Source: Escherichia coli
GTDB lineage: Bacteria; Pseudomonadota; Gammaproteobacteria; Enterobacterales; Enterobacteriaceae
Reading direction: 5' to 3' (one strand)
DNA length: 64,000 bases
Assembly (NCBI RefSeq): GCF_017348835.2
Contig: NZ_CP072315.1
This document shows, in pieces, positions 6,322-55,867 of the stretch; within the stretch, counting starts at the first letter, position 1; the number at the start of each line of letters is the position of its first letter. The position numbers and the translations under genes are program-made. A model generated the notes under the pieces. That model made no database searches. It saw only the letters and a list, made by a program, of their open reading frames with translations, and had not been told where the DNA came from.

Positions 6322-6332
6322 GGCTAATAACC
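6322..6332 (-). promoter_or_regulatory. conserved promoter-proximal element (plus-strand GGCTAATAACC)
   Basis: About 43 bp upstream of the start at 6279. Confidence 0.45.
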
Positions 6333-6399
6333 CGTAGCAATATAATTTGCATTTTTTCTATTTCTGAAGACGCTTTTTAAATTAATATTTACTGAGTTA

Positions 6400-6678
6400 T
6401 CACAACTTATTATTCTTCCCGTCTGCTGTTTTATTAATCCCCCAGTTAGTAATCACGCCAAGTCGGCGCAATTTTTCACGTTGTTCATAAATAAAAAAAT
6501 CGCCAAGGCAGTCTTTTAAAACTTCACTATCCTGATATTTTATTTTTTGAAGCATCCTCGCAACTATGGCGCGTTTCAGGAATATGGCTGCATCAGACTC
6601 AAGCATTTGTGAGGACTGTCTGACGGTCTCCTGCATGTCGACGATACTGCTGAGCTTTCGTCTGACCACGCTTAGCAT
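6400..6678 (-). CDS. hypothetical protein
   Basis: 92-aa ORF. Confidence 0.35.
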   Translation of the reverse strand: MLSVVRRKLSSIVDMQETVRQSSQMLESDAAIFLKRAIVARMLQKIKYQDSEVLKDCLGDFFIYEQREKLRRLGVITNWGINKTADGKNNKL

Positions 6679-6862
6679 AGTGTCCGGGAACCGCTTAGCG
6701 GCTGAATGTAACCCGCAACAACGTTACGCATTGTTTTACTCACTGCAATTTTCCATTTAAGTCTGTTTGTTCCACCAGCTGCTAACATCAGCGTTATTCA
6801 TCCTGAGGTTTCGCCCGCGATTGACAGATCAGAGGCAGCATGGATGAAATTGCCAGAGTAGA

Positions 6863-7144
6863 TCACTGCATACGCGAATAGTGGTTTGTATTCAGTTCTG
6901 CGTTTGCCTGCTTTTCCAGTGCTGTCATAACCCGGCGGAGCATCGCCAGAGCCTGAACAGGCGAGCTCCCAAACTGCACTTTCACTTCAGCCGTATCATG
7001 ATCCTGAATCAGGTCGAGTATATTCACTTCGATCCCTGCCCCGTTTTCATCTTTTGCCGTGCACTGAATACTTACCCGGGTCACCGAATCCGTCAGGACT
7101 GGCAGTGGGTTAGTTTTGTCTACGTTGATAACAGCCTTCTTCAT
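6863..7144 (-). CDS. hypothetical protein
   Basis: 93-aa ORF directly downstream of the ParB-like gene. Confidence 0.4.
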   Translation of the reverse strand: MKKAVINVDKTNPLPVLTDSVTRVSIQCTAKDENGAGIEVNILDLIQDHDTAEVKVQFGSSPVQALAMLRRVMTALEKQANAELNTNHYSRMQ

Positions 7145-7209
7145 TGCCCTGTTTCCCCTTGTCCTGAAAAAGTTACCGACCCGTCCGGATGGAGGGGTCG
7201 GTCAGAAAA

Positions 7210-8394
7210 TCATGACTGTCCCTTGTTCATCTTATCAGCATGCTTACGCAGGTACTCTTTCAGGTCAGCATGAGCGTTGATGATATCGTTCATTTCATCA
7301 TTGGTCAGAACAAGCGTGTAAGTATCAGTACTGACAGATTCACCTTCTTTAAGCTTGGCTTCTTCAGCAATACGTTCAAAAATCGGGATCGCGGTGTCTG
7401 CAATGACGGTCACAGTCTTTTTGTTCAGAACGCTGGACATGGAAGGTGCTTTACCTGCCGGGTTCTGTTTAGGAGCGCTGTCCTTTGGAGCTGGAGCCGG
7501 TTCCTGTACCGGTGGCGTATCCAGCGTCTCCGTATTGCTTTCATCGTTCAGTTGATCCGGTACCGGGGTGTTATCGGTAGTATCATCTGCCGGTTGCTCA
7601 GCACCGATGTTTTCCGGAGTCTGCGGATCTGCCATGCGCTCTTCTACCTTGGCAGCTTTGACGAATTTCAGCGTGTTTTTCGTCGCCTTGCCATAGATGG
7701 AGATCGCTTTGTTGATGTTATCTACCGCATCCTCACCGCTGTACATATACTCGTCCAGTGCAACGTACATGCTCACCTGATCGCTCACAAGCATGGTCTG
7801 TAGTTCAGAAGGCAGGTCCAGTACGCGAACCATCTGGCGAAGATGCTGCTCTGATTTACCACGTTTTTTTGCCAGTTCCGCAAAGGTCTTAGGCTCTTCT
7901 TTATCTTCAACCAGACGCTTAATTGAAAGCGCTTCAGCTACGACAGACAGCGCCAGGTTGGAGTTGCCGGTCAGGGTGAAGAGTTCTGCTTTTGAAGCGC
8001 TACCGCGAAACTCTTCGCAGCGAATACGAGTAATGCGTTCACGCCCTTCTGCTTCCAGCTGGCGGTTTGCAATAGCGATGGAACGGATACGGCAAGCCCC
8101 CTGACGCAGTACAGGTACGCCATTAACCATCTGAACAACGATAGGCGTCACGCTGAACGGGTCTTCCATGTAGGCATCGGCCAGGCTGTTCAGGTGTTCC
8201 ACAACGTGAGGCATTGAATAGTAGAGCTCGCCCATACCGGCCGTGCGGGTGTTAAAGCCTTCCTGCTCTACAACAACCGAAGGGTCAATGATAAGGCCGT
8301 TGCCTTTACGGGCACCGTTACCAGTGCGTTCCAGGTAACCACGAAGGCTGATTTCGTTGCTGTTGTTTTTTACTTCAGTTTCGATTGCGGACAT
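7210..8394 (-). CDS. ParB/Srx-domain (ParB-like nuclease) protein
   Basis: N-terminal ParB-like block (GFNTR ... VVQMVNGVPVLRQGACRIRSIAIA), paralogous to the ORFs at 55984..57147 and 60358..61413; Pro/acidic linker; two palindromic motif copies upstream. Confidence 0.7.
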   Translation of the reverse strand: MSAIETEVKNNSNEISLRGYLERTGNGARKGNGLIIDPSVVVEQEGFNTRTAGMGELYYSMPHVVEHLNSLADAYMEDPFSVTPIVVQMVNGVPVLRQGACRIRSIAIANRQLEAEGRERITRIRCEEFRGSASKAELFTLTGNSNLALSVVAEALSIKRLVEDKEEPKTFAELAKKRGKSEQHLRQMVRVLDLPSELQTMLVSDQVSMYVALDEYMYSGEDAVDNINKAISIYGKATKNTLKFVKAAKVEERMADPQTPENIGAEQPADDTTDNTPVPDQLNDESNTETLDTPPVQEPAPAPKDSAPKQNPAGKAPSMSSVLNKKTVTVIADTAIPIFERIAEEAKLKEGESVSTDTYTLVLTNDEMNDIINAHADLKEYLRKHADKMNKGQS

Positions 8395-8484
8395 TTTTGT
8401 TCTCTTTTTTGGTTGGTTGTTTAACTGCGCTACAACACAACAATACCAGGTTCGACATTTTTCCTAATAGGTTGCGGAGAAGAA

Positions 8485-8495
8485 AAAGTAACTTT
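8485..8495. promoter_or_regulatory. AAAGTWACTTT palindromic motif copy
   Basis: aaagtaacttt; about 90 bp upstream of the ParB-like gene start at 8394. Confidence 0.5.
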
Positions 8496-8610
8496 TTTTA
8501 AAAATTTTCCTGAGGCAATACTACTCGATCCGTCCGTTTTAAATCTTCACAACAGTGGGCCGTTTTTACGTTTAAGCAAAATAACTGGTTCAGAAGGTGA
8601 CTCAGAGAGA

Positions 8611-8621
8611 AAAGTTACTTT
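8611..8621. promoter_or_regulatory. AAAGTWACTTT palindromic motif copy
   Basis: aaagttacttt; second copy upstream of the ParB-like gene. Confidence 0.5.
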
Positions 8622-9495
8622 TCCGGTTGTCTGGGCCAGTGATGGGAGAGTGGCAGGACAGGAATGGCTAAACCGGTGCGGGTCTCTTGTAAGTCGCAGG
8701 GGATTCAGGAGATATAGAGGTAAACTGGTACGTTCAGTTTTTGGATTGAGCCGGGCTTTTGGCCCGGGCTTAAGGAAGCAGAAATTTGAACGAACTGGCA
8801 GGTAATGCTTTATGCCGCCGACAGCTGGCCGTCAGTGCTTTGCTGTTCTGGTTTGACAGTTGGGGGATAACCGGCAGTTAGCCGCTGGCATTCCGCATCA
8901 CAGAAAGCCCTGAGGTTGCTGAAGACGGACTCCATGAAATCAGCATGAGCATACGAGTCTACAGGACGTGTCTTGTTATCTTTCATCTTGTTCTCCTCAA
9001 TCATTATTAAAACCAGCGGATTTAGTTTCTGGCGCTCCATCTGCTGACCGGCTTTCCCAGAGAGCAGCGATGTGTCGGGTTCTTTTTCTCATTTTATCGT
9101 TTTCATCGGGCCCATCCGGGCGTATAAGAGACCGATTTGGCATGTTTAGGAAACGTACTGGCGTAATTAAAAGCTGAGGTTGGATTTGGAATAAAAGGAT
9201 GCTTTTCCCGTTTGTCGGGTCTTTCGCCACCGCTGCACGATGATTCTGTCAGGCATTCTGCGCCCTCCCAGGCTGCACATCTGGAAACAAGCGTTGGGAT
9301 GTTCCCTTCCCCTGCTCACCGTAGAAAGATCGGCAAGTCCCGACGGTCGTTCCGTACGAGCCGGGTCCAAATAATGAATAAATAAAACGCCGCTTCAATT
9401 GTATTGACAATAGAAGTCAGGAGGATCATAGTGTCATTCATGGTGCGGCTTTCGCACCACCGCCCCGGCGGTACCGGGCAGAACTGGAGTACCTC

Positions 9496-10440: not shown

Positions 10441-10536
10441 TCCAGCGACACCCCCTGCGGCTCTACTACCGGGCCGCAGTCTGCTCCTGCCCAGATGGTG
10501 CCAGTGGTGTAATGAATTTGTTTAATAAGGCTAAGT

Positions 10537-11139: not shown

Positions 11140-11192
11140 CAGATCACGGCAGCATTTATAACAGACGAACTCCAGAATAATTTAAAGCAACC

Positions 11193-11549: not shown

Positions 11550-11579
11550 ACGGCAGGTATCGCCTGTCATTTTACCCTT

Positions 11580-11798: not shown

Positions 11799-12110
11799 AG
11801 GGCTGCATCAGCCAGGCCCGGATATAAATACATGCTCTGCCAGGTGAGTACCACTGCCCGGTAGCCGAATGATAAGTTTTGATTTCACGGTTGCAATTTC
11901 TCCCTCTGGCATCACTGCTCCACGATGCACCCCGATCAGCTTAGCGTCTGAAAATGAAGATGCACCGGACCTGCATGAAGCGGAACGGTGCCCAGCTGAG
12001 TGTTTGTGGGCACAATGAACCGCAATTTCATGATGGGAATGAAAGATGGCTGGTGGCCCGCTGATATGAACGCTTACCCTGCATAACGTTACTAACCACA
12101 ATCTTTTCAC

Positions 12111-12205: not shown

Positions 12206-13543
12206 ATAAGCGCTAACTTAAGGGTTGAACCATCTGAAGAATGCGACGCCTCGGTGCCTCGTTAAGACGATGCCTCGCGTTCTTCAATTGCGTTTTGTAG
12301 GCTGTCAGGGATACTGTCCCACGAATGGCCACCTGTAAGCTCCAGATGACCATTTTTGTTATTCTCCACAACGAGTTAGTTCTTCTTTTCGGATCCGGCA
12401 CTTCTGGGGGGGAAATCCAGCGATGGCTGGATTATGTCGTCAATTAAAAATGCGGCGAGTAGATTAGCAAATATCCACGCTTTCGCGAGTTCAGGTTCCT
12501 TTGCACGCAAAGCATCCAGGTGCAGCAAACTTTTGAGCCGCTTAAAAGCCAGTTCAATTTGCCATCGCAGACGGTAACAATCAGCCACTTGCTCTGCTGA
12601 ATATTCATCTTCCGGTAATGATGTTAGCAATAGCACATGGCCCGCTGCTTCCAGCGTTTCCGCCTGAACTACTCGTCCTTTTCGACGATTCTCGCTGAGC
12701 AGTCGGGTTTTACTGATTAATGCTTTTTCGGGAGGAAGTGATACGGCAATGAGACGTGCCGGAAAGGGAGCTCCGGCTTTTTTATTACCTGAATTGCCTA
12801 TCATTACAGTGGTTTCACCGTTCTTACCGCAATCCAGCCCGCGCAGAAAACCCATCATGTCAAAGCGCATTCCTTCTGCAGTTAACCAGCGCAATCCTCG
12901 CCAGTGAACCCGGACGATATAATCAGCTTCTCCAAAAGCAAGTGAGCGGATACATTCGGGACGCGAACCGAATCCCCGGTCAGCAATGCGTATCTCGTCT
13001 GCCGTTTGCGCAAATCGGTCCAGCCGTTCAGCGTCTCTGCTGTCGGTTAGCTCAAAATCAGTGAACTGACAGGTATGAGGATCATATCCCATATGTAGTC
13101 GCCATTCAGCGCTGCCGCCCCCGGGCGCACTGATTGCTGTTCCATCGACAAGACGCAATCTCTTTCCGCTTGTACAACCCGTAACTGCGGCGCGTACAGC
13201 AAGTGTTTGTGCGGCAAGTATGCCAAACCAGTCGGCGGCATTCCGCAGCCGCTTCAGGAGAGCCACGTCAGATAATGTTGCAACGTCATGGAGCTGAGCC
13301 CATGCAGTGACTTCACGTAATGACATCCCCCCGGGGCCGTAAGCCAGCCCCAGACGTAGCAGAGTTGCAGCATCACGAATTTCGCGGCGGCGGGTTAGAG
13401 CCCCGGCATTACGTGCCGAAGTATCCAGTTCTTCGGGCTTACCAATATGGGCCAGAATTGCTGACCAGTTATCGTGAGAGTAATTCATCGGCACGTTAAA
13501 TCATATCAGGCGTAATACCACAACCCTTAAGTTAGCGCTTATG
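12206..13543 (-). mobile_element. IS186 (IS4 family), complete copy
   Basis: 1338-bp element with terminal inverted repeats cataagcgctaacttaagggttg / caacccttaagttagcgcttatg, flanked by a duplicated GC-rich target (gggggttgccccc). Confidence 0.9.
12376..13494 (-). CDS. insL: IS186 transposase
   Basis: 372-aa IS4-family DDE transposase with the YRLRWQIELAFKRLKS signature; matches my recollection of E. coli InsL. Confidence 0.9.
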   Translation of the reverse strand: MPMNYSHDNWSAILAHIGKPEELDTSARNAGALTRRREIRDAATLLRLGLAYGPGGMSLREVTAWAQLHDVATLSDVALLKRLRNAADWFGILAAQTLAVRAAVTGCTSGKRLRLVDGTAISAPGGGSAEWRLHMGYDPHTCQFTDFELTDSRDAERLDRFAQTADEIRIADRGFGSRPECIRSLAFGEADYIVRVHWRGLRWLTAEGMRFDMMGFLRGLDCGKNGETTVMIGNSGNKKAGAPFPARLIAVSLPPEKALISKTRLLSENRRKGRVVQAETLEAAGHVLLLTSLPEDEYSAEQVADCYRLRWQIELAFKRLKSLLHLDALRAKEPELAKAWIFANLLAAFLIDDIIQPSLDFPPRSAGSEKKN

Positions 13544-16628: not shown

Positions 16629-17002
16629 ATTATATCCTTAAGCCAACACGAACTGCGCCACAAAAATTAATGTGGCGCAATTTACCATAAACAATAAACA
16701 TCAGATACCCGTGAAGAGATTTCCCTTTATTTTAAAATTCTTCTGGAGAAAAAATGATATTTCCAGAAGAAGTCAGCGAAATTCAGAAACGGCCATCACA
16801 ATGGTGCTGCGCTGACGCTGGCGTTCTGCCTTGCGCTGCCTGCGGCGATAGATCTATTTTGCGCTGACGTAAGGGCAGTCCTCACGGGTATACCAGCAGC
16901 AGCCGCAAGGTTCGGGCCGGGGTTTTCCGGCAAGTCCAAATGGTTTCATCAAGTCACCTTTTTAATATTTTTAATGGCAAGATACTTCCCTAACACATTG
17001 TT

Positions 17003-17314
17003 TTATCGCATATAACGCTGTTGCATAAACAGATACAGATAACCCTCAGGAGAAAACATGCAAAGGTTATCAGTGATAACCGCATCCAGATACCGAGTGT
17101 CAGTCTGTAAACGTTTTATCACCAGAAAATGTGCTGCCGCAGCCTTAATGCCAGAACTACCGTTTACAACATTATGTATACCCGCTTCGAATAACGAACG
17201 AGCATGAATTACCTTTTCCCGGGCCGCTTCGATCTCCGCATTAATAACGCATTGCCGCGCCTGGATGACTGCCTCTCCGGTTAAATCGCGGAAATTCATT
17301 AGAGATGTGATCAT
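17003..17314 (-). CDS. hypothetical protein
   Basis: 103-aa ORF preceded by the conserved promoter-proximal element and a TATAAT hexamer. Confidence 0.45.
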   Translation of the reverse strand: MITSLMNFRDLTGEAVIQARQCVINAEIEAAREKVIHARSLFEAGIHNVVNGSSGIKAAAAHFLVIKRLQTDTRYLDAVITDNLCMFSPEGYLYLFMQQRYMR

Positions 17315-17364
17315 GATTAACTCTCCAGATTATGTGGAATCATTATAACAACTGGCATCCCGCC

Positions 17365-17379
17365 ACAAATAACCTGAGA
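17365..17379 (-). promoter_or_regulatory. conserved promoter-proximal element, variant (cacaaataacctgag)
   Basis: On the coding strand the element is followed after about 19 nt by TATAAT, then the start at 17314. Confidence 0.45.
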
Positions 17380-17534
17380 AAAATTCTTTGAAATATTCCT
17401 ATATAAGGAATTACAGTCGGAAAAGAAACGATGAAATAGCGCCGACCGCTTAAAATCGATAAATTAAAATGGACGGCACTGGAATGAAAAACTGAAAGTA
17501 GTAAGACCGTAATTATCCTTCACGGATGTAAGCT

Positions 17535-17735
17535 TTATAAGAGGAGTACTGGCAAAGCTTTGCCAAGTACTTCGGCGGTTGTGTCTACGATTTTACGGAT
17601 GTCATCGATCTGCGAAGGCTTATTCAACACCACCGTAAAAAGCTCTCCTTCGTTATCAGCCTGCTCGCAGTTTCCGTATCGGCTCCCGTCGTACAGCTGC
17701 ACAATACGTGACATAGAAGACTTTGTTTGTTTCAT
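17535..17735 (-). CDS. hypothetical small protein
   Basis: 66-aa ORF. Confidence 0.35.
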   Translation of the reverse strand: MKQTKSSMSRIVQLYDGSRYGNCEQADNEGELFTVVLNKPSQIDDIRKIVDTTAEVLGKALPVLLL

Positions 17736-17774
17736 GGCTTTGCACCTGCTTTTAGGCAGTTTGGTTACTGGTTA

Positions 17775-17999
17775 TCAGAAGCTGGTTTCATGCGCTTCCG
17801 GCTGGGACACGAACTGGTATTTGACGCCGCCAGGCACACCTACTGCTTCGGCAATAGAGTCGCAAAGCCGCGATAAATCATTTAGTGTCATCGGATATTC
17901 AATATCTACAGAATATAAAGCACCTGCATTTTCAGCATCTTCGATGTTTTTATACTGGGCACTAAATATAGCAATGGTCTGAATTTCGTGGTTATGCAT
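17775..17999 (-). CDS. small protein, paralog of 22964..23203
   Basis: Shares the block PMTLNDLSxLCxSxAxAVGxPGGxKY with the 79-aa ORF at 22964..23203. Confidence 0.5.
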   Translation of the reverse strand: MHNHEIQTIAIFSAQYKNIEDAENAGALYSVDIEYPMTLNDLSRLCDSIAEAVGVPGGVKYQFVSQPEAHETSF

Positions 18000-18053
18000 G
18001 AACCGGTCCTTATTAAATTATAAAAGCCACCCGAGAGTGGCCTGAGTTGAAAC

Positions 18054-18257
18054 TTAAATCTGTGAAGTATTTTTGAGAGATTTTTTGCGATCCAGATGCC
18101 GGGCAACAATGGTTCCGATAACAAGTAGCATGATGACCGCACTGAAGAAGGTGCTGTCAGGGACGCCCTGGAAAAAATCACTGAAACTGTAAACAATAAA
18201 AATCAATGCGCAAAAATAGAAAACGATACGAACATAAGGGGTAAAAAACATTTTCAT
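18054..18257 (-). CDS. small membrane protein
   Basis: 67-aa hydrophobic ORF; palindromic motif about 140 bp upstream. Confidence 0.4.
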   Translation of the reverse strand: MKMFFTPYVRIVFYFCALIFIVYSFSDFFQGVPDSTFFSAVIMLLVIGTIVARHLDRKKSLKNTSQI

Positions 18258-18397
18258 CGGTTGCCTTCCATTCAGGGAGAATTCTCAGTAATTACATCAC
18301 ACCTGAAGAGAAACTATTTTCGTATAAATGAGCATTTTCGACATATCAGAGGGGGGGTTTACTCATAAATGAGGTAGTAAGGGTCACACTTGAGGTG

Positions 18398-18408
18398 AAA
18401 GTTACTTT
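18398..18408. promoter_or_regulatory. AAAGTWACTTT palindromic motif copy
   Basis: aaagttacttt; upstream of the leftward gene starting at 18257. Confidence 0.5.
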
Positions 18409-18436
18409 CCTGGCTGCGAACGAACTATCTCAAATG

Positions 18437-18730
18437 TTAGAGGTGTGCGTTCGCCTTGAGAGCCTCATGCCCTGAGGAGCTCAACTTGAGCCGATAGTAT
18501 AAACCTGGCTCCAGATGGCTTGCTGGCTGGCATAACTCCACGAGGCCGAGCCGGAACAGGACCGGAGAGCTCCTGCACGTCACATCATCAGGATTCCCCA
18601 TAAACGTACGCCGTTCTCTGGCCCGTCTGAAATTGCCAGAGATATCATAGACCGTGCCGGATGCCATCCGTCGTAACACGTAAATCTGTGCCATTGTAAG
18701 CTTCTGGGCGGAACTGCTTAAACCTGACAT
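18437..18730 (-). CDS. hypothetical protein
   Basis: 97-aa ORF. Confidence 0.4.
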   Translation of the reverse strand: MSGLSSSAQKLTMAQIYVLRRMASGTVYDISGNFRRARERRTFMGNPDDVTCRSSPVLFRLGLVELCQPASHLEPGLYYRLKLSSSGHEALKANAHL

Positions 18731-18809
18731 ACCTTCCCCTCCTTATATAAAACAATCCGCCAGCAGCTCGACTGGCGGACAATGTTTGACTGGCAACAGC
18801 AAGGACATA

Positions 18810-19301
18810 CTATTTAGTGACAAGTTTGATCTTGGTTTCACTCATTCGAAGTCGAAACTCCTGAAAACCCTGCTCTACCGCTAACTCCAGCCACTCAACG
18901 GGAATGGTATAGCTACAATCAGACCCACCCAAAGCGGCATCACAAGCGTAATCCCAGTCCTCATCCAGTTTTGGATTCATCCCCTGGGCGTAAGCCACAG
19001 TATCGCGGGATGCGGGAGAGCCCTCAAGCTCAGCATTAGTGATCAGGTATACACCATGACTGTGCGCGAGAAGCACTTTTGGCACCAGATGTGTGCTGGC
19101 AATTTTTGAGGATGAGGGAAAGAAAACCCTACCAGCTTTACGCGCCTCTTCTTCAGTCTGTCCCTCAGCGTTAAGGAGGGCTCCCCCCGGATAGCATGCC
19201 GGGTCATAGATCTGATCTGCGGTGACCGAAAACGTTTTTGCGGTGCGAATTTCTTCGATCAGTTTATTAATATCCGCCATTTCAAATACGAGAGTGGTCA
19301 C
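18810..19301 (-). CDS. hypothetical protein
   Basis: 163-aa ORF immediately downstream of the 19306..19653 gene. Confidence 0.5.
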   Translation of the reverse strand: MTTLVFEMADINKLIEEIRTAKTFSVTADQIYDPACYPGGALLNAEGQTEEEARKAGRVFFPSSSKIASTHLVPKVLLAHSHGVYLITNAELEGSPASRDTVAYAQGMNPKLDEDWDYACDAALGGSDCSYTIPVEWLELAVEQGFQEFRLRMSETKIKLVTK

Positions 19302-19305
19302 AGGC

Positions 19306-19653
19306 TTACTCTCCCTCTTCAGTGGACAACATCAGATACTTTGTTGCCAGCAGAAGCTCTCCCACATCCTTGAGGGACAATTCAGCTTTGCCTTCTACGG
19401 CAAGCTGCAAGCGCTGTCGAATTGCATGAACAGAATCTGAAGATAAAGATGCCATTTTGCGCAAAACGGCATTAGCCTTTTCTACAGCAGGATACAGAAT
19501 TTCTGAGTTGGTATTATCTTCGTCATTATCAAAGATAATTTCAGAATCCATATTGATGTTATCTTCAAGCCAGCTTGAAAGCACTTCAAGTAATGACATC
19601 ACCTTTTCAATTTGCATATCGCCTCCTCTGTTAATGTGAAACAAATATAACAA
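19306..19653 (-). CDS. acidic hypothetical protein
   Basis: 115-aa ORF (alternative start at MQIEKV); conserved promoter-proximal element plus hairpin just upstream. Confidence 0.45.
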   Translation of the reverse strand: MLYLFHINRGGDMQIEKVMSLLEVLSSWLEDNINMDSEIIFDNDEDNTNSEILYPAVEKANAVLRKMASLSSDSVHAIRQRLQLAVEGKAELSLKDVGELLLATKYLMLSTEEGE

Positions 19654-19674
19654 AGTGGCTTACCCGGCTAATAA

Positions 19675-19689
19675 CCTGAGCAGAAAGTT
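19675..19689 (-). promoter_or_regulatory. conserved promoter-proximal element (ggctaataacctgag)
   Basis: About 22 bp upstream of the start at 19653; adjacent to an inverted repeat. Confidence 0.45.
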
Positions 19690-41284: not shown

Positions 41285-43705
41285 ATGAAACATCTCGCTT
41301 TTATTACTGCTGTAGCCGGACTCGGTATGTCTGTTCAGGCCCCAGCTCAGATATATGAATCGGCCTTTAAGGACACGAACGGTATTGAGATCCACGCCCC
41401 GTCTTCTCGTCTTATGCTTAATCCGGCATCACCGGTAACTTTGACACTTATTTCAGGTCTTGATCGTTTCGTTAATGTCAAAGTCACGAAAGACACTGGA
41501 ACTGTCATTCTTAATACTACGACTACACGGACGGGTGTATCAGACCGACTAACAGCTGCTGACGGTAGTGAGTTCTACGGCAAAAAAGTAACTTTGCCTG
41601 CTTTGGGTGAAGGCAAATTTGTCGTTCAGATAAACGTGTTAGATCTCAATCAGAAGCCTGTAGCGACCTATAACTATAACTGGCTAATTGATGTCACCCC
41701 TCCAGCGGCAAATGCTCTTACCGCTAATACTGGTTCTGGCTCTACCGCTGGTGACGTGTGGAAGCTTGGATTAGAGGCAACGGGGCAGTATGACTTCACC
41801 TCTTCGGGCGTAAGTGATGCAAATGGTATTGATAAGGGCCTAATATATATTTACAGGCAGGACGGTAGCCTCTACAGCACTACACAGATGCAGTATGACG
41901 TATCCGGCCAAAAGATGTACCACACTTACTCTAAGAATTCAGTTAAGGGAACCGGAATACCAGACAGCAACCTGGATGAAGACTTTACTGCAAAAGTTGT
42001 TATCTTCGATAACGCAGGTAATAGCCGAACGCTGCCAACTCAAAAATTTCGCTACGACAACACGCTGGGTGAGATGACACTGTGGGCCGTTCATGATCCA
42101 AATACGTCTTCCAGCGTCGTACCCGGGGTTTCTAATTATCCGGCTTACAAAGCCGGTATGGTCGTTAACGAAAACCCTATTCGATTAGTCTACCGGATCC
42201 CAAAATCTAACTACCGTGCTTATTCAGAAGGTGGGCTTCAGTTCATCAATCAATATTCCGCCCCCAAAGAGATAGCTGTAGACAGCACTTATGCTTATGT
42301 TGAAATGACTCTTCCCTATGGCTCAATTAATGGGGATATGGCTCGTATGGCGAACTTTGGCCAGTGGGGAGGGTATTATCCGTCATACAGCCTCGTTCTA
42401 AACCCATCTGCAAACCAAACGCCTGCATTTGCGGGTACCTGGGTAGATTTCCTCGATGATAAGGGGAACTGGGTTAAGTGGAAGGATTTTGAGAGTGTGG
42501 CTTCATCACGACTGCCAATTAAAATTTCCCGACTTCGTTTTAACGTTGAAGCCCGGCCCTTTGCACAGGAGATCGGCGGTAAGGCGACCTGCACCATTCC
42601 GGCAGGAAAAACCTCGTGTGAAGCGCCTGAGACGTTTGATATGGCCTTGGGTACCCAGGGCTACAATAGAATCCTTTACTTCGTTCGCAGCATCAGCAAT
42701 CCCATTTTGCGGTCTGAGCAATGGATTATGACACGCTGGAACAATAAACAACTGCCGGTAATAAACTCGATATCATATGACGAGACTAACAAGCAGCTGG
42801 ATGTACTGGCGTCACTTGAAGGCGATGGTAACTGGTTCGACTCGGTCTCATTGAGGGAATTTTATCTTTCCGATAAGAACACCGGTACCCGGATGTCACC
42901 AACAGGCGTAATCAAATCTCGTATCTCAGGTAACTACACGATTGCTTATGATTTATCCCGTCAGTCTGAAGGAAAATACAACGTTGAGGTCAACATCAGG
43001 GACTTCTTCCAGAACCAGACCAATAAAACTTTCGGAGAAATTGCTCTGGATAACACTCCTCCGACAGTGGCCATAACATTCGACGGAAAGCCGGTAAAAG
43101 ACGATACGGTAGTGTACGGCCTGGAGAACCTCAGGATCGCTCTGGCAGATAATCTGACAACCCCGAGGATAACCCGTCTTCAGCTCGTAGGTGGCCCCAC
43201 AGCTGATAACGTTGAGCTTACGTGGTCACCGGCAGGCAAAGATACATACATGCCTGAGTATCCGAGGCTGTTCCCAAATTTCGAACCATCTGAAAATTAT
43301 TCAATTAGCGTAACAGTTGCCGATAGTCAGTCGAATACCAAAACCTATACTCAGAAGTTCAGTTATCTACCGAATAACCTTGTGCAGTTACATAATCTAC
43401 GCACATTGTCGGTCAGTTCACCTCTCAAAACGACAGATGGCGTACCACTTGCGTACCTGTCCACTAACGTTCTGCGTAAGACAAATGGAGAAATTGCTAA
43501 AGGGGTCCAGAACGCAACGCTGACTGTGCGGAAGGATGCAGCCTTCGGTATTAAATTTAATGGGGCACAGGCGGCTCCAGGCGAGTCAGTTGAGGTGCAA
43601 ATAGATATGGGCCAGGGGGATAATCTTCTGTTACCCGTTTATCCTTCCGAAAATGGGAAAGTTGGCACCTCAGAATTCATGATTCAGATCGACGAGTTGA
43701 AGTAA
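41285..43705 (+). CDS. large secreted beta-rich protein (paralog 2 of 3)
   Basis: 806 aa, signal peptide, collinear conserved blocks with 35274..37691 and 49587..52043. Confidence 0.7.
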   Translation: MKHLAFITAVAGLGMSVQAPAQIYESAFKDTNGIEIHAPSSRLMLNPASPVTLTLISGLDRFVNVKVTKDTGTVILNTTTTRTGVSDRLTAADGSEFYGKKVTLPALGEGKFVVQINVLDLNQKPVATYNYNWLIDVTPPAANALTANTGSGSTAGDVWKLGLEATGQYDFTSSGVSDANGIDKGLIYIYRQDGSLYSTTQMQYDVSGQKMYHTYSKNSVKGTGIPDSNLDEDFTAKVVIFDNAGNSRTLPTQKFRYDNTLGEMTLWAVHDPNTSSSVVPGVSNYPAYKAGMVVNENPIRLVYRIPKSNYRAYSEGGLQFINQYSAPKEIAVDSTYAYVEMTLPYGSINGDMARMANFGQWGGYYPSYSLVLNPSANQTPAFAGTWVDFLDDKGNWVKWKDFESVASSRLPIKISRLRFNVEARPFAQEIGGKATCTIPAGKTSCEAPETFDMALGTQGYNRILYFVRSISNPILRSEQWIMTRWNNKQLPVINSISYDETNKQLDVLASLEGDGNWFDSVSLREFYLSDKNTGTRMSPTGVIKSRISGNYTIAYDLSRQSEGKYNVEVNIRDFFQNQTNKTFGEIALDNTPPTVAITFDGKPVKDDTVVYGLENLRIALADNLTTPRITRLQLVGGPTADNVELTWSPAGKDTYMPEYPRLFPNFEPSENYSISVTVADSQSNTKTYTQKFSYLPNNLVQLHNLRTLSVSSPLKTTDGVPLAYLSTNVLRKTNGEIAKGVQNATLTVRKDAAFGIKFNGAQAAPGESVEVQIDMGQGDNLLLPVYPSENGKVGTSEFMIQIDELK

Positions 43706-49586: not shown

Positions 49587-52043
49587 TTATTTTAATTCTT
49601 CAATGTTAATCATGAACTCAGATCTGCCAGTAAGGCCGGATACAGCAGGGAAAATAGGAAAGCTACGGCTGTCCCCGAGCCCCAAATCCAGTTGAAGCTC
49701 TTTGCTTTCACCTGGCATCGCAGAAACGCCATTTACAGTCACGCCGAATGCAGCGTCCTTACGGACAGTAAGCACTGCGTCCTGAAGCCCTGTAGCGATT
49801 GAACCATCCTTTTTACGCAGCTGGCTGGCATACAGAACAGCCAGAGCAGTATTGTCAGATGTTTTGAGAGAAGCATTGACAGCTAAGGTTTTCAGATTCT
49901 CTAGCCTGACGAGATTGTTTGGAAGGTAGTTAAATTCGACTGAGCTTTCTTTAACGTTGTTCATCTCATCTTTGGCCTGAACTGTGAGAGTGTATGTTTC
50001 GCCTTCATTAAGAGACGGAAAGATCTTGGGATAATTAGGTGCATACAGGTTGTTTCCCAGATTCACCCAAGACAATTCCACCGCATCAGAAACAGGGCCA
50101 CCGCGAAGAGTCATACGGCTTAAGGATGGTTTAGTTAGAGCATCGGTGAGCTGTATACGGACGTTCTCCAGCCCATATACTGTTACGTTTTTGCTGATCG
50201 GTTTTCCTTCGTAGCTAATACTTACAGATGGTGCTGTATTATCAACGACAACTGTTTGATAAGGGAGGTTACCGGTATTGTTGAATGTATCTTGGGCATT
50301 AATCACCACGTTATAACTGCCTTCTGGTACCTCTTTCATGTTGAACTCATACGTGTAGTTCCCAGACGCCATATTTCTACCTGTTTGTTTGCCGGTTACG
50401 CTTATTTCTGCGTTGTTACGGTTTTTATCTGACAACCAAACTCGATTTACATAAACATGGTCGAAATATGAACCATCTCCAGGTTGATTCACGTAAACCT
50501 GGAGAATGTTGGTGGTTTCATTGTAATCAAATCCAGTGACGGAGGGACCCAGTGTATGCCAGGCTATATTCTCCCATATAGGGGCAAAGAAGGTTGCTTC
50601 GGTGGTTGACCTTACTTCATAGCCACTATGAAGATAACCGGTAGTGCCATTTATAATATCCTGGGGCAAAGAGACGGTACAGGTTGTTGAGCCAGCTGGA
50701 ATACTGCATGTTGCTCCGCCAGTGATTTTTTGATCATATGGCCTGGCCTGTACATTGAATCGGATATTAGTAAGTTTTATAGGCATATCAGATGCCTTGA
50801 ACAGGTTCCAGTTTACGCTGTTGAACCATGTTCCATCAGCCTTTTGTCGTTCTATGGGTGAACTTCCCCAAGCCGGACTCTTTACAGAGGCAGGATCCCA
50901 GTTGAGCCAGCTGGCATACTGACCAAGATCTCCTCCAGACCATTGATATGTATTCACAGGTCTATAGTAGTTTCCATCTAAGGCACCCTGTGGCAGCTTA
51001 ACTTCCACGTAGACATAGGTGGCATCTTCGGAAAGGACCTGTACTCCGCCATAGTTATTGGTAATGCTCATGCCACCATTTCGATATGGCTTCCAGTTAG
51101 TTCTTGGGATACGTATAACCAACTTGTAGGGGTTTTCCAGCACTGTAAGGCCTCGTTTAAACGGGACGTATCCCGAAGAAATGCCGGGTACAACACTGGT
51201 GCTTACACGTGAGTCATGAACTGCAAATGGCGTAAATTCTCCCATTTGATCGTCATATAAAAACCGCTGGGGAGGAATGTTAAGCGTATTTCCTGCCAGG
51301 TCCGTAACGATGAAATTGAAGGTGAATTCTTCATCAAGATCACTTGAGGGCATGCCAGCCTGGGTGTTCATATCTTTAATCCACGGATAGAACGCACGTT
51401 TATTGGCTGTGTCATAACTCAGGTTATTGTCGGAGACCACAGAACCATTACTTCGTTTAATGACAAGACGGATCTTGTCAATTCCACTAGCATCCTCAAT
51501 ACCGTCTGCAAATATAGAAAACTGGCCACTACCGCCTCGGCCCAACTCCCAAAGTGGCCCAGAAAGTACCATGTCGTAACCTGCGTTTTGACTCGGATAA
51601 ATACTCTTATAGCGTGGAGGAGTTGTATCAACGATGAAATGATAAGTAGATGTGCTCACTACAGTCTGGCGAATATCCAGAGTTTCATTGACTACAGTAA
51701 AGGTCCCTTCTCCGAGCGCCGGTAGAACCATATCCTTTCCATAGTATTCTGTTCCATCGGCAGCAACGATACGATCTGCAACGCTCGTTTTGGTCGAGAC
51801 GGAGGAATACATAACCTTTTTATCGCTGTCTCGTGTGACCGTCACTCGCTCGTACCGATCAAGACCCGATATCAAGTTCAGAGTCAAAACACCAGCGGGA
51901 TTAAGATATGTTTGTGTTGCAGGTTTGATATTCCGAACAGCCTTATTGGTATCTGTAAATGAGTAGCTAAATACCTGAGCATGTGCCGAAGATACAGTAG
52001 CAAGGGCAGTTGCAACCATGCAGCCAATTAGAGTTTTACGCAT
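49587..52043 (-). CDS. large secreted beta-rich protein (paralog 3 of 3)
   Basis: 818 aa, signal peptide (ATALATVSSAHA), conserved blocks shared with the other two paralogs; two palindromic motif copies upstream. Confidence 0.7.
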   Translation of the reverse strand: MRKTLIGCMVATALATVSSAHAQVFSYSFTDTNKAVRNIKPATQTYLNPAGVLTLNLISGLDRYERVTVTRDSDKKVMYSSVSTKTSVADRIVAADGTEYYGKDMVLPALGEGTFTVVNETLDIRQTVVSTSTYHFIVDTTPPRYKSIYPSQNAGYDMVLSGPLWELGRGGSGQFSIFADGIEDASGIDKIRLVIKRSNGSVVSDNNLSYDTANKRAFYPWIKDMNTQAGMPSSDLDEEFTFNFIVTDLAGNTLNIPPQRFLYDDQMGEFTPFAVHDSRVSTSVVPGISSGYVPFKRGLTVLENPYKLVIRIPRTNWKPYRNGGMSITNNYGGVQVLSEDATYVYVEVKLPQGALDGNYYRPVNTYQWSGGDLGQYASWLNWDPASVKSPAWGSSPIERQKADGTWFNSVNWNLFKASDMPIKLTNIRFNVQARPYDQKITGGATCSIPAGSTTCTVSLPQDIINGTTGYLHSGYEVRSTTEATFFAPIWENIAWHTLGPSVTGFDYNETTNILQVYVNQPGDGSYFDHVYVNRVWLSDKNRNNAEISVTGKQTGRNMASGNYTYEFNMKEVPEGSYNVVINAQDTFNNTGNLPYQTVVVDNTAPSVSISYEGKPISKNVTVYGLENVRIQLTDALTKPSLSRMTLRGGPVSDAVELSWVNLGNNLYAPNYPKIFPSLNEGETYTLTVQAKDEMNNVKESSVEFNYLPNNLVRLENLKTLAVNASLKTSDNTALAVLYASQLRKKDGSIATGLQDAVLTVRKDAAFGVTVNGVSAMPGESKELQLDLGLGDSRSFPIFPAVSGLTGRSEFMINIEELK

Positions 52044-52199
52044 ATGATGCTCCGGGAATAGGTTATAGCCTTATTCTACGGATTCAGCCTACAAGGTCCG
52101 GTCGGATAAAGTGATAATTTGCCTGTTAAAAGAGACATCAAGTGAGAAAGCAACCAACGTACAGAATGCAAAATGGCGGCAGTGCATCTGGATGACGCA

Positions 52200-52210
52200 A
52201 AAGTAACTTT
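52200..52210. promoter_or_regulatory. AAAGTWACTTT palindromic motif copy
   Basis: aaagtaacttt; in the divergent region between 49587..52043 and 52416..53042. Confidence 0.5.
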
Positions 52211-52264
52211 TTGTATCCACTTTTTTGGATTTTAGCCTTCAAAATGAGTATTCAACCAATCATA

Positions 52265-52275
52265 AAAGTAACTTT
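52265..52275. promoter_or_regulatory. AAAGTWACTTT palindromic motif copy
   Basis: aaagtaacttt; second copy in the same divergent region. Confidence 0.5.
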
Positions 52276-52415
52276 TGATAGACGCTGCTCCTTTATGTTT
52301 GCCAATTGTGCTGATATGTTTGTAAATTCAAGGAAGCGAGATTTTAAAAGCATCTGTTGAGTCAAATTTATGTAAAATAACAGGGAAACCATCACTTCTA
52401 GGTTGAGGAAACCCA

Positions 52416-53042
52416 ATGTTATACATGCTCTTATGCTGTTTTCTGATGCTCAACAGTACATTCGTTATGTTCAGAGCAATGTCTGCAATAAGTAAAGGAT
52501 CCGCTAAAGAAAACCGGTCTGAAATATCGCTGATAGTCCTAGCAACACTTGGAATCGCATCACCATTCATTGTCGCAATGATTACTATTAATGAAAGTAT
52601 GACATCTAAAACAGTAACAGATTTTTCTTTGGGTGCTCAGTGGTACGGAATGGTTTCAGCGGTAGCGCTAATGGGGTTATATGCTCGACGCGTTTGGAAA
52701 GAGAAGAAGTCCTTATTTACTGGCGCTTTCCTGGCCTCTTCCTTAATGGCCTTTATTTTTACTGACAGCCTTGTTTTCGTATCCCAGAAGGACACCGGCG
52801 TTCTGGCTACTTTCGTACTCGATAAAAACGCTGGAGATATTGATTGTAGTCGCCCGGCTATGATTGTCCATTACAGTAAAGGTGTTCCAACGGACTGGCG
52901 TTGCCCAACCAGTATCATGTTGATGGCGTATTCTTCATATCCTTTTTTACCCTGGCCTGAGTATAGCCATGGTACCAGCCAGTCTCTTACGGTTGTTATT
53001 GATACATTTATGGAAAACGCTGTTAATCTCAGCCAAAAATAA
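52416..53042 (+). CDS. integral membrane protein, unknown function
   Basis: 208-aa ORF with multiple hydrophobic segments. Confidence 0.45.
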   Translation: MLYMLLCCFLMLNSTFVMFRAMSAISKGSAKENRSEISLIVLATLGIASPFIVAMITINESMTSKTVTDFSLGAQWYGMVSAVALMGLYARRVWKEKKSLFTGAFLASSLMAFIFTDSLVFVSQKDTGVLATFVLDKNAGDIDCSRPAMIVHYSKGVPTDWRCPTSIMLMAYSSYPFLPWPEYSHGTSQSLTVVIDTFMENAVNLSQK

Positions 53043-53047
53043 AAAAT

Positions 53048-53075
53048 AAACCTCACTAGTGAGAGGTTTTATAAA
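53048..53075 (+). terminator. putative bidirectional hairpin terminator
   Basis: cctcactagtgagagg inverted repeat followed by a T-run, between convergent genes. Confidence 0.4.
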
Positions 53076-53099
53076 CCTGAGCCACCAATCTAATTAACT

Positions 53100-53381
53100 C
53101 TATATTTTTGTTTTAGCTTTTTTAAAGATAGACTTACCGAATAAAACAGCAATTATAGAGCAAAGGCCTGGCGTTAGGACAAAAGCTAATAATGCACTGC
53201 CAAAACTTGTCATTTCAGGCACCAGGAACCAGCTGATAGGCCACGTCAGGGCTGGTAAATTTAGCGGATCATAAAGCGCATGTAGAGCGCTTAACACACA
53301 GTAAAGTGCTAAAAAGCAAACTAGATAAACAACGATCCACATTTTAATTTGCTCAGCAATTTCAAATTTTGGACTGCCCAT
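53100..53381 (-). CDS. small membrane protein
   Basis: 93-aa hydrophobic ORF. Confidence 0.4.
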   Translation of the reverse strand: MGSPKFEIAEQIKMWIVVYLVCFLALYCVLSALHALYDPLNLPALTWPISWFLVPEMTSFGSALLAFVLTPGLCSIIAVLFGKSIFKKAKTKI

Positions 53382-53823
53382 GCTTTACCTCAGTGGCTGA
53401 ATATTGATGGTTAATATCTTTAATCACCCGTAAGCACTTAGTGCATACCTTAGTTCGATTTGTCTGCTTGTCCAGAGTGTATTTAACTTCAAGTTGACCT
53501 CCAGCATTAAGCAAAGTGAGCATCTCATCTTCTAACACGCTTCGGTAAATGGTCTTGGCCGAGAGTGTGCCCGGTAACGAGTACTCAACATAATTGTTTG
53601 AAACTCTTACCGATTTAGGGATTTTACCACTGAGCTGGGTTTCATTCGTTGAAGGCATTACAGTTACTTTAATCACAGTTGCCGGTGACCAGAAATCCTG
53701 ATAACGCACTTTATGAATTTTATCAGCTCTAAGGCCTAACCACACATTTCCGGCGATAAGAACAATAAGCAATCCATAAACTGATCGTCGAATGTTACGC
53801 CTTTTAATCACAATGTCCCCCAT
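53362..53823 (-). CDS. membrane-anchored hypothetical protein
   Basis: 153-aa ORF with N-terminal TM helix; overlaps downstream gene. Confidence 0.45.
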   Translation of the reverse strand: MGDIVIKRRNIRRSVYGLLIVLIAGNVWLGLRADKIHKVRYQDFWSPATVIKVTVMPSTNETQLSGKIPKSVRVSNNYVEYSLPGTLSAKTIYRSVLEDEMLTLLNAGGQLEVKYTLDKQTNRTKVCTKCLRVIKDINHQYSATEVKHGQSKI

Positions 53824-54044
53824 CCCTCAAATATCATTCTAAATAACTGCACCAGGATATCATGAGCGTAATTAATAGAATTCTTCATAACCGGGGTTTT
53901 CAGTTGAGTTTGCGGACTCTTTACTTTGCGGTTTCTCACCCTCTAGTTGAGTATCCCTGACAGGCTTGGATTTACCCATGCTCCTCTGAAAGGTATCCAT
54001 AACAAACTCAATATCTTCTTCTGGCAGGCTGGTGGGTTGGTTGC

Positions 54045-55736
54045 TCATAGGACTTCCTCTTGTTGAATACGTTCGGCGTACAGGATGCGAACCGAAACGG
54101 TCGTGTTTTCAAACTCGTTCTCAAAAACGTCCATCCATTCCGTCCGGAATTCTTCCCCCAAAAGGTTATCGAGCCCCTGAAGAGATAATGGAAGAACGGC
54201 TGCTAGAGATCCCCCGGCTGCGAGATGAGATGCAGCTGCCTGGAGATGCAGCCTGGCCCGGTTATCGGCAAAAGGTGGGTTCATCACGACATAATCAAAC
54301 TTCTTCTGTTGATTAGACTTAGACCATGTGAGGAAGTCAGCTTCTGTCGTATCGTATCCCTTAGCCCGGGAGATAAGGCAATTCAAAGTATCAAGCTCGA
54401 TGCCAGTAACGATCACACCGGCAGGGAATGATTTAAGCAAATCCGCATGGCCAATATTAGGCTCCAGGAGGGTATCCCCTTCCCCTGCACCAAGCAGGGA
54501 AGATACATATTCGCTGATTCGGCAAGATGAAGGGTAAAACTGATGCGATACAATATCAGGCATCTCCCCTATCTGGCCGATGTAACGAATAACCTCACAC
54601 GGATCATAGGAAAATGTCACATCGTATTTTGTTACTGTTGCCCCTAAGAACCGAAGGGTGTCAGCGGCAACACTCGAAGATTTGCGTTCGGCGAGAGACC
54701 CTAAAGATGTCCAGCAACTCCATTTATTGTCCCCGTCATTTTTAAACATCAGTTCAGAAAGCTGCATCCGGGTATCAAAGTCGATGCACTGCTTAAGTAC
54801 AGGGAATGCCTCCAAAGATTTCTTGCTATGAGCCATACGGTCGGCAGGTAATGCCAGCGGTACGATAGCTGATAAAATATTGTTAAGCCGCTCGGCGATA
54901 TCAGGGTGGACGTCAATATGCATTGATCCATTTTTGTAAACCCTGAAACGAATACTGTTGCCATCGATGCAGATCCATTTTCTGAACCCCTCATGTTCGA
55001 CCAACGCCTCAACCAATGATTTGGTGTTATGGATCGCCTTCACCTGTTCGCCACGGAAGAATGCGCATATAACGCGGAGCTCGCTCAGCGGTGAAATGCC
55101 AGACTCTTTAAAATCCACCCTTAATTTCTGCCAGGGGTATTTAGACGGCTCGCAAACTCCGGTAGTGATCATGCGGGTGGAGAACCCAAAAGCTTTGTTT
55201 GTCTTGTGACTGCGGCTCAGAGACTGGAAGACGTCGTAAACCCTTTCTTTAATAAATTGATTGCGGTCATTAAGCAAAGCAACGACTGTGCCCACTACAG
55301 CGTCAGCTGTGAAATCAGGGATCACCTGAGGCGGCATAATATAACGGTCGGCCGTAAACTGCTTATCCCATTCGTTACGTTTGGCATCCGACATGATAGG
55401 CAAAACATCAGTGAGTGCCATAACGCATTTCCAGTATTCTGATCTCAGAGCGTTTTCTGCGAACAAAGCATCCGCTTCTGAGATGCTGTGGTTGTAGCCT
55501 GAGAGATAAGAATAAAGTTTCTGGTGATTGTGGGTTTTGAACTGGACAGCCATGAGTTTCAACAAGCAGAGTTCATCATTATAGGACTCAACAAGATCCG
55601 CGATAATGCCGAGCTCTTTGCGCATATCTGGAAGAAATGTTTCAGGAGAGCTAACCACCAGGCTATGAGAGGTTGTTAAAGCCAGTACGCTGTGACCTGC
55701 ATTATCGGGTTTAGCTTCAGAATCAAGAGATGACAT
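54045..55736 (-). CDS. N6-adenine DNA methyltransferase (NPPF motif), 563 aa
   Basis: YVVMNPPFADN catalytic motif near the C-terminus; variant promoter-proximal element upstream. Confidence 0.7.
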   Translation of the reverse strand: MSSLDSEAKPDNAGHSVLALTTSHSLVVSSPETFLPDMRKELGIIADLVESYNDELCLLKLMAVQFKTHNHQKLYSYLSGYNHSISEADALFAENALRSEYWKCVMALTDVLPIMSDAKRNEWDKQFTADRYIMPPQVIPDFTADAVVGTVVALLNDRNQFIKERVYDVFQSLSRSHKTNKAFGFSTRMITTGVCEPSKYPWQKLRVDFKESGISPLSELRVICAFFRGEQVKAIHNTKSLVEALVEHEGFRKWICIDGNSIRFRVYKNGSMHIDVHPDIAERLNNILSAIVPLALPADRMAHSKKSLEAFPVLKQCIDFDTRMQLSELMFKNDGDNKWSCWTSLGSLAERKSSSVAADTLRFLGATVTKYDVTFSYDPCEVIRYIGQIGEMPDIVSHQFYPSSCRISEYVSSLLGAGEGDTLLEPNIGHADLLKSFPAGVIVTGIELDTLNCLISRAKGYDTTEADFLTWSKSNQQKKFDYVVMNPPFADNRARLHLQAAASHLAAGGSLAAVLPLSLQGLDNLLGEEFRTEWMDVFENEFENTTVSVRILYAERIQQEEVL

Positions 55737-55867
55737 TTTACCGGTCCTTTAGAAAAAACTTTTACCAGGATAGCAACGTCGCTCAGTAACCTAATAGGTT
55801 CAGTGACACGAAAAAGTTTTTTATGTCTCTGAATAAAACTTAAAGATGTCAACTCATAGAAAGAAGC

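Follow-up and report, generated by a model that had tools for sequence, protein, structure and literature searches.

In the IncP-1 plasmids RK2/RP4 the KorA/KorB system, itself encoded by the plasmid, controls a large set of backbone promoters by means of short palindromic operators whose position is fixed; its sites for KorB-type ParB-family proteins are found beside promoters, at about 100-200 bp upstream of promoters and within genes. Another solution is found in the IncN plasmids pKM101/R46, in whose leading region the CUP (conserved upstream) repeats are long, highly similar to each other, made by duplication and associated with coordinated, repressible expression. In the IncC and SXT/R391 elements, which belong to the same MOBH/MPF_F super-lineage as the IncHI plasmids, a shared box directly upstream of the -10 defines the AcaCD/SetCD regulon (PMC4542580). 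The present analysis concerns a box with dyad symmetry found in the -35 region of 14 predicted promoters in a stretch of 64,000 nucleotides (nt) from Escherichia coli (contig NZ_CP072315.1, hereafter the window), which is part of an IncHI2 plasmid backbone, between the transfer regions Tra1 and Tra2. The anatomy of these promoters, their fixed geometry, their restriction to one 50-kb block and their conservation under selection in two diverged lineages are established here; they form a lineage-specific promoter class of the IncHI1/IncHI2 backbone. This box regulon works like KorA/KorB, CUP and AcaCD/SetCD yet is a member of none of them, because the sequences differ, long repeats of the CUP type are absent and the box is not located at transfer promoters.

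A search with a 10-nt core followed by position-weight matrices (PWMs) recovered 12 leftward and two rightward box promoters in the window, with leave-one-out scores of 10-26 bits. Boxes of at least 15 bits were observed 10 times in the reference IncHI2 plasmid pAMSH1 (NZ_CP030940.1, complete, 257 kb) against 1.65 expected, and eight times against 1.05 in R27, a diverged IncHI1 plasmid which was left out of model building. A preliminary description of this DNA had attributed an exact 15-mer to at least six leftward genes; its plus-strand form GGCTAATAACCTGAG occurs only twice (19666-19680 and 34892-34906). With up to three mismatches there are eight matches in the window against 1.35 expected, three of which (51418, 51668 and 51965) fall within the open reading frame (ORF) 49587-52043, are not followed by a -10 and are taken to be chance matches. 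The six sites meant at the time were probably 6322, 17364 and 27367 (three mismatches each), 19666 and 34892 (none) and 32468-32482 (four), and the two variants reported with them, at 28237-28251 and 55786-55803, are genuine family members with a ACCTATTAG-type box. The family is thus neither limited to the few sites first listed nor confined to leftward genes, since the sites at 38165 and 57427 both precede rightward ones. The distances given at first also changed: the box was placed 22-66 bp from the start codon, which measures 42-82 nt from the end of the 15-mer, and about 19 nt from the -10, which measures 16 nt from the 15-mer and hence 17 nt from the 10-nt core. Its assignment to the -35 region is supported, this core lying a fixed 17 nt upstream of a good -10, and the genes that follow are indeed unrelated. 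The promoters are given below, where the core coordinate is that of the base with which the 10-nt core begins, read on its own strand, gene products are in amino acids (aa) and the palindrome is AAAGTWACTTT, a second motif discussed further on.

3296..3333, minus strand, core 3328: weak box ACCTGTTTGG, 17 nt, TATAAT, before a 94-aa gene (2988-3272); conserved R27 orthologue at 97300; 108 bp upstream, a palindrome (3436-3446)
6300..6337, minus strand, core 6332: GGTTATTAGC-17-TATAAT, before a 98-aa gene (5983-6279); R27 orthologue at 94686
8440..8477, minus strand, core 8472: variant ACCTATTAGG-17-TGGTATTGT, before a ParB-like gene (7210-8394); palindromes at 8485-8495 (abutting) and 8611-8621
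17342..17379, minus strand, core 17374: GGTTATTTGT-17-TGTTATAAT, before a 103-aa gene (17003-17314)
19644..19681, minus strand, core 19676: exact 15-mer, then TGTTATATT, before a DUF957 gene (19306-19617) and a DUF3085 gene
20921..20958, minus strand, core 20953: GCTTGTTAGC-17-TATAAT, before a 75-aa gene (20633-20860)
27344..27382, minus strand, core 27377: GGTTATTAGT-18-TGTTATGAT, the sole 18-nt spacer in the window, before a 263-aa gene (26510-27301)
28216..28253, minus strand, core 28248: variant ACCTATTAGC-17-TATCAT, before two genes (27851-28177 and 27528-27785); palindrome at 28384-28394
31988..32025, minus strand, core 32020: AGTTATTAGG-17-TGGTATCAT, before a 142-aa gene (31525-31953)
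32450..32487, minus strand, core 32482: GGTTATTAGC-17-TATAAT, before a 125-aa gene (32048-32425); palindrome at 32596-32606
34870..34907, minus strand, core 34902: exact 15-mer, then TGTCATGAT, before a three-gene operon (32833-34839) of a 156-aa zinc-ribbon protein (34369-34839), a HigB-like toxin (34023-34319) and a 393-aa protein (32833-34014)
38160..38197, plus strand, core 38165: GGTTATTAGC-17-TGTTAATAT, before a 254-aa gene (38225-38989) and a methyltransferase operon
55767..55804, minus strand, core 55799: perfect 13-bp palindromic box AACCTATTAGGTT, 17 nt, TGCTATCCT, before a DUF4942 methyltransferase gene (54045-55736)
57422..57459, plus strand, core 57427: AGTTATTAGT-17-TACGAT, before a Dam methylase gene starting at about 57517

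Each promoter presents the same order of elements, that is, an AT-rich UP-like tract, the dyad box, an unconserved spacer, the -10, an A at +1, a short leader, a Shine-Dalgarno (SD) sequence and the start codon; in the minus-strand reading of the sites first cited, this appears as an A/T-rich tract, CTCAGGTTATTAGCC or a relative of it, a variable spacer and a -10 often preceded by TG. The profile built from 27 sites (14 of IncHI2 and 13 of R27) has the consensus AAa.T.caaAaT.tTT.....cAGGTTATTAGc, followed by 16-17 unconserved nt and ttTG.TATaAT....tcA. The conserved A lies exactly 7 nt past the -10, as expected for +1; counted from there, the 10-nt core occupies positions -39 to -30, with the 11-nt dyad centred at about -34. 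In the same profile the A+T content is 73% in the UP-like tract (-59 to -44) and 52% in the spacer; the start codon, with its SD, follows the -10 by 20-60 nt. The -10 hexamer is close to consensus, being TATAAT at four of the 14 window sites and matching it at 3-5 of six positions at the other 10 (the one-off hexamers are TATATT, TATGAT and, twice, TATCAT), and TGn directly precedes it at 20 of the 27 sites (8/14 in the window and 12/13 in R27). In these features, and in the lack of a canonical -35, the promoters resemble extended -10 sigma-70 promoters, although ordinary members of that class have no conserved sequence where the IncHI promoters carry a 13-bit dyad box.

The spacing is rigid, with a spacer of 17 nt at 13 of the 14 window sites and of 18 nt at the remaining one. 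Counting boxes of at least 12 bits with a good -10 anywhere within 11-25 nt, the distance was 17 nt in 18 cases and 18 nt in two, where such a -10 has a background frequency of 0.00125 per position. Shuffled sequence contains as many boxes lacking a -10 as the plasmids do, so that every real box sits in a promoter. The box itself has the consensus cAGGTTATTAGCc, the variant AACCTATTAGGTT and the general form RSYTA-T-TARSY. GGTTA-T-TAGCC is symmetric except for one pair, and in AACCTA-T-TAGGTT the symmetry is perfect over 13 bp; the two types of half site occur in all four combinations, and the box before the ParB-like gene has an invariant TATTAG and a left arm that reads AACCT in IncHI2 and AGGTT in IncHI1. 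About 13 bits of information are held in 10 positions, some of them beyond any -35 hexamer. A scan of 17000-36999 with the sigma-70 consensus caught none of the box promoters, and canonical sigma-70 promoters were not in excess in these 20 kb of the block (25 versus 31.6 expected); the best -35 reading of the box is TTAGCC with a 16-nt spacer, which agrees with TTGACA at three of six positions.

Two further structures accompany these sites. A hairpin with a 15-bp stem (CCTGAGCAGAAAAGTT...AACTTTCTGCTCAGG) is located at 19672-19726 on the minus strand, directly upstream of the 19676 box, whose CTCAGG is provided by the 3' arm; this hairpin could be the upstream gene's terminator, joined to the promoter. 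Additionally, a second box-like element at 38115-38145 on the plus strand, GCATATTAGCC followed after 14 nt by TATATAAT, precedes the 38165 box promoter by 50 bp and may represent a tandem promoter.

When the whole of pAMSH1 was searched with the PWM, all matches of at least 19 bits fell at 43.4-94.5 kb, in one 51-kb block; Tra1, Tra2, the tellurite region and the resistance islands had none of that score, and a few weaker candidates were found elsewhere. In R27 there were 17 matches of at least 13 bits where 2.0 would be expected; the syntenic Tra2-Tra1 block contains 13 of these, oriented with their genes. Pairwise alignment of eight orthologous promoter regions of IncHI2 and R27 gave an overall identity of 46-64%, in which the box, the -10 and the SD/start are conserved whereas the spacer and flanks have diverged; conservation limited in this way is therefore a phylogenetic footprint and not the residue of a recent duplication. 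The earlier proposal of modular promoter duplication is not supported: copies resemble one another only in the box and the -10 and differ in spacers and flanks, no homology of at least 100 bp between copies was detected, and the elements persist in R27 orthologues within intergenic DNA otherwise so different. The IncHI promoters are like CUP in that unrelated genes of a co-oriented plasmid block share an upstream promoter/operator element, and unlike CUP in that the similarity is limited to the 11-15 bp box and the -10. The pattern, as read from the aligned sequences, indicates selection on a binding site and not copy-and-paste. The companion proposal of coordinated, possibly repressible expression fared better and stands as the most economical reading of a box conserved under selection.

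The more distant Klebsiella MOBH/MPF_F plasmid NZ_CP034040.1, of IncFIB/IncHI1B type and with ParB-like homologues about 35% identical, lacks the IncHI box; in the equivalent block, another shared cassette, aaatAGGGGcTTGAyg-N16-TATCCTGG, precedes co-oriented genes without known function (copies with their -10 TATCCTGG at 6824, 9007, 12435, 17445 and 18808, and a sixth, more divergent copy starting at 13361). This cassette is absent from pAMSH1 and R27, and the two are thus mutually exclusive. Its near-consensus TTGAnn occupies the exact place of the IncHI TTAGCC, from which it follows that each lineage has homogenised its own -35-region sequence despite a common host sigma-70. When 100,044 species genomes, one per species, were scanned for TCAGGTTATTAGCC, which gave at least 120 loci, the matches listed were chance singletons except for two IncHI2-type contigs. 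No description of the box or of AAAGTWACTTT was found in the searchable literature: IncHI papers contain no such motifs, and GGTTATTAGC and AAAGTWACTTT turned up there solely in primers and other sequences that have nothing to do with these plasmids' promoters.

The reading favoured here, held at a little less than an even chance, is that the box serves as the operator of a plasmid-encoded dimeric repressor that would occlude the -35 region. Each predicted promoter is a duplex one of sigma-70 type (UP-like tract at about -59 to -44, dyad box centred at about -34, near-consensus and usually extended -10, A at +1), on which a plasmid-encoded dimeric DNA-binding protein would cover the -35 region and block RNA polymerase. 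Promoters that should be intrinsically strong would in this manner stay quiet in established cells. They could fire together wherever the regulator is lacking or titrated away, as might happen when the plasmid has just reached a new host. The most obvious candidates for the regulator would be the two ParB proteins with a helix-turn-helix (HTH) encoded in the block. Given TGn, a good -10 and an UP-like tract, an extended -10 promoter would be expected to work without an extra factor. In R27 microarrays, R0062-R0066, five consecutive ORFs, gave background or near-background signals both at 25 °C and at 37 °C and also in the derepressed htdA mutant (PMC7366339, Tables S3 and S4), and the three-gene operon behind the best box promoter of R27 (64748) probably falls within them, as mapped by gene order with repHIB (R0050), IS10 (R0076) and gltS (R0077) as anchors of the R-numbers and two extra ORFs of the original annotation allowed for. 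It is this silence, together with a symmetric site at -34 where sigma region 4 must sit, that favours a dimeric repressor.

The resemblance to KorA/KorB extends to several features. Many backbone promoters have the same short palindromic site in a fixed place (14 in the window, at least 13 in R27, with a 17-nt spacing in 18 of 20 scored), which overlaps the -35 at the 14 promoters of the window; a second palindrome with 41 copies has a similar three-way distribution, its layout recalling the KorB operators of IncP-1; and ParB-HTH proteins are encoded on the IncHI backbone, both motifs being present in the promoter of one of them. On the other hand, the sequences differ, the KorA operator overlaps the -10 and not the -35, and no KorA-like protein was identified, the IncHI sites being putative operators.

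Several points weigh against the repressor. The regulator was not found, and among the genes behind box promoters only the first ParB-like one has a recognisable DNA-binding domain. A rigid distance from box to -10 is commoner in elements that recruit RNA polymerase than in operators. The silence in the arrays could also come from repression of the AT-rich upstream tracts by H-NS, from the lack of an activator or from probes of poor quality, and H-NS acting on the AT-rich upstream tracts could also contribute alongside other control. Box-driven genes were not uniform in the R27 arrays, R0043 being low while others may be moderate and htdA-responsive. Finally, the box promoters themselves are predictions made from DNA sequence.

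Positive control is a serious though less probable explanation, according to which the box would be bound by a plasmid-encoded activator or a factor retargeting sigma-70, would replace -35 recognition and would keep the block off until the factor is made, in the manner of the AcaCD/SetCD boxes of IncC/SXT, the T4 MotA box of middle promoters or the phage Mu Mor/C sites. The lack of a canonical -35 and the rigid -10 distance, both usual in promoters of this sort, the common extended -10 and the silence of the best R27 box operon in all arrayed conditions would all be accounted for. However, a symmetric dimer at about -34 would fill the space needed by sigma region 4 (classical dimeric class II activators centre near -41.5), and an UP-like tract with TGn and a good -10 should not require an activator. 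Activator boxes overlapping the -35 have been reported in related MOBH/MPF_F elements (PMC4542580); those of AcaCD/SetCD serve FlhDC-like activators mainly at transfer-gene promoters, unlike the IncHI box, which is absent from the tra regions and, as a short dyad at about -34, fits a repressor better. The operons that depend on TrhR/TrhY (F, H, AC and Z) lie in Tra1/Tra2, where boxes are absent, and the htdA mutant, which releases TrhR/TrhY, fails to turn on R0062-R0066 or R0043. TrhR/TrhY as the reader of the box is thus disfavoured, the tra regions being without boxes.

A purely cis-acting explanation appears unlikely. It holds that host RNA polymerase alone recognises the box, which would act as a weak -35 (TTAGCC, spacer of 16 nt) with additional upstream contacts and without any trans factor, the similarity being that of a shared promoter cassette which spread along with the genes. 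It agrees with the 3/6 match of TTAGCC to TTGACA, with the near-consensus TTGAnn at the same place in Klebsiella and with the fact that all other conserved elements contact RNA polymerase and all real boxes are within promoters. It does not explain an information content far above that of a -35 hexamer and reaching -39, a dyad symmetry not needed for contact with monomeric sigma, the homogenisation of a different box in each lineage under the same host sigma-70, or a strong-looking promoter that is silent in R27; moreover, unrelated spacers speak against any recent copying of a cassette.

Cross-talk with the host is much less probable still, in the sense that the AACCT-N3-AGGTT variant boxes would be bound by the chromosomal antitoxin MqsA or a similar XRE-type host protein, linking some of the plasmid promoters to host stress signalling. 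MqsA is reported to bind 5'-AACCT(N)3AGGTT-3' (PMC4894380); the variant AACCTATTAGGTT fits this palindrome exactly at 55799 and the 8472 box is one base off, and the strongest box promoter drives an operon with a RelE/HigB-like toxin. The majority consensus AGGTTATTAGCC, however, does not fit, no homologue was found on pAMSH1 or R27 (tblastn of validated MqsA, best E 1.5), and the zinc-ribbon neighbour of the toxin is not MqsA-like in sequence or predicted fold. A single-strand promoter of the Frpo/ssi type, which leading regions often carry (PMC11541004) and which would suit the leading-region flavour of the block (genes co-oriented towards oriT/Tra1, orphan methyltransferases, ParB-like genes, toxin-antitoxin modules and hok), is scarcely credible and was rejected, since DNA-parameter folding of 300 nt around the 14 sites gave z mostly from -2 to +1.5 with no consistent long hairpin on either strand and the promoter elements have ordinary duplex geometry.

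The second motif, AAAGTWACTTT, has 14 exact 11-bp copies in the window (3436, 8485, 8611, 18398, 20605, 23336, 28384, 32596, 41585, 43809, 52200, 52265, 59092 and 62876), 41 in pAMSH1, where about 0.2 are expected, and 42 in R27. It is spread across the whole backbone, including the tra regions, and is absent from accessory DNA; 20 of 31 copies lie outside coding sequence, against 21% of non-coding DNA (P about 2e-7), and the other 11 lie inside genes. The preliminary description had joined it with the box in one regulatory module. This is correct in part: five palindromes lie upstream of four of the 14 box promoters (3328, 8472, 28248 and 32482), four of them at 108-139 bp and the fifth abutting the 8472 box. 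It fails in that the palindrome is backbone-wide and even denser in the box-free Klebsiella plasmid (20 in 40 kb), with six copies within 870 bp upstream of the homologue of the first ParB-like gene and more upstream of that of the second. AAAGTWACTTT is therefore a separate backbone-wide element, only partly associated with the box, and may be the binding site of a ParB-family (KorB/Noc-like) protein.

Both ParB-like proteins of the window (the first at 7210-8394, the second at 55984-57147) carry a ParB-type HTH. The promoter of the first combines the box with two palindromes and that of the second has no box. On the minus strand at 57215-57245, the latter promoter has a palindrome variant, AAAGGTACTTT, conserved between IncHI2 and R27 and located about 28 nt upstream of a conserved TAGTAT -10; the R27 orthologue of the second gene, R0042, is the most highly expressed gene of the block (PMC7366339). 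As the Klebsiella lineage keeps the palindrome and replaces the box, the divergence of each HTH in that lineage was compared in order to match the motifs to the two proteins; the identities, 34% against 44%, gave no clear assignment. The operon at 32833-34839 on the minus strand (zinc-ribbon protein, HigB/RelE-like toxin and 393-aa protein) is conserved in R27 and apparently silent in its microarrays. The 156-aa zinc-ribbon protein gave a confident AlphaFold2 (AF2) model with no structural relative and no MqsA-like or HTH fold, and the 393-aa protein, considered as antitoxin or regulator, had no detectable homologue in Pfam or PDB.

It can be speculated that both motifs belong to one IncHI programme, in which the -35 dyad box would put about 14 promoters under a dedicated repressor or a phage-like, sigma-70-retargeting factor, and AAAGTWACTTT would provide KorB-like ParB sites that silence at a distance, with a timed burst on entry. 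Taken with all its parts jointly (the box factor, the 41-42 palindromes and the entry burst), this is rather improbable; if true, it would be a new regulatory circuit in a main family of multidrug-resistance plasmids. IncHI1 and IncHI2 plasmids carry typhoid multidrug resistance, mcr-1 and extended-spectrum beta-lactamase genes, and about a quarter of the IncHI backbone is made up of a block without assigned gene function or known regulation. The shared conserved box defines a putative regulon of at least 14 transcription units and points to an undescribed plasmid-specific switch controlling the block as a unit; it offers a handle for finding the regulator and a route to testing a role of the block in entry, establishment or anti-defence. 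The gene content and the orientation to Tra1/oriT are suggestive of a leading region, and the transfer polarity of MOBH/IncHI plasmids was not found in the accessible literature. The mutually exclusive Klebsiella cassette, in turn, suggests that each lineage has its own promoter code, which would bear on compatibility, cross-talk and host range.

As to the DNA itself, 17000-37000 of the window is 100% identical to many conjugative enterobacterial plasmids of 210-280 kb (IncHI2A/MOBH/MPF_F) in a megablast search against plasmids; a phage origin was discarded because a megablast against a phage collection gave no match. The window aligns to about 40.1-101 kb of pAMSH1 with two indels. Its left end is the end of the Tra1 H operon (S49 peptidase, nuclease), its middle is a long block of mostly leftward genes without assigned function that spans repHI2, and its right end is a second RepB-family gene just before Tra2. 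Nearly all genes of the block are without Pfam or PHROG assignment (PHROGs and precomputed Pfam); the exceptions are several orphan methyltransferases, a PAPS-reductase-like protein, the two ParB-like proteins, the HigB-like toxin, hok and three immunoglobulin-like (Ig-like) proteins. Relative to pAMSH1 the window has two insertions, at about 12.3-13.5 kb and about 44.6-45.8 kb, one with a 372-aa ORF strongly matching PHROG 4555 and the other with a 399-aa ORF in a patch of 53.5% G+C, and both are probably insertion sequence (IS) elements. The Ig-like proteins are three paralogues of about 800 aa with DUF4165/Big_3 domains (35274-37691, minus strand; 41285-43705, plus strand; 49587-52043, minus strand) which flank repHI2 and could be relatives of the Ig-like proteins of RSP type that IncHI conjugation needs.

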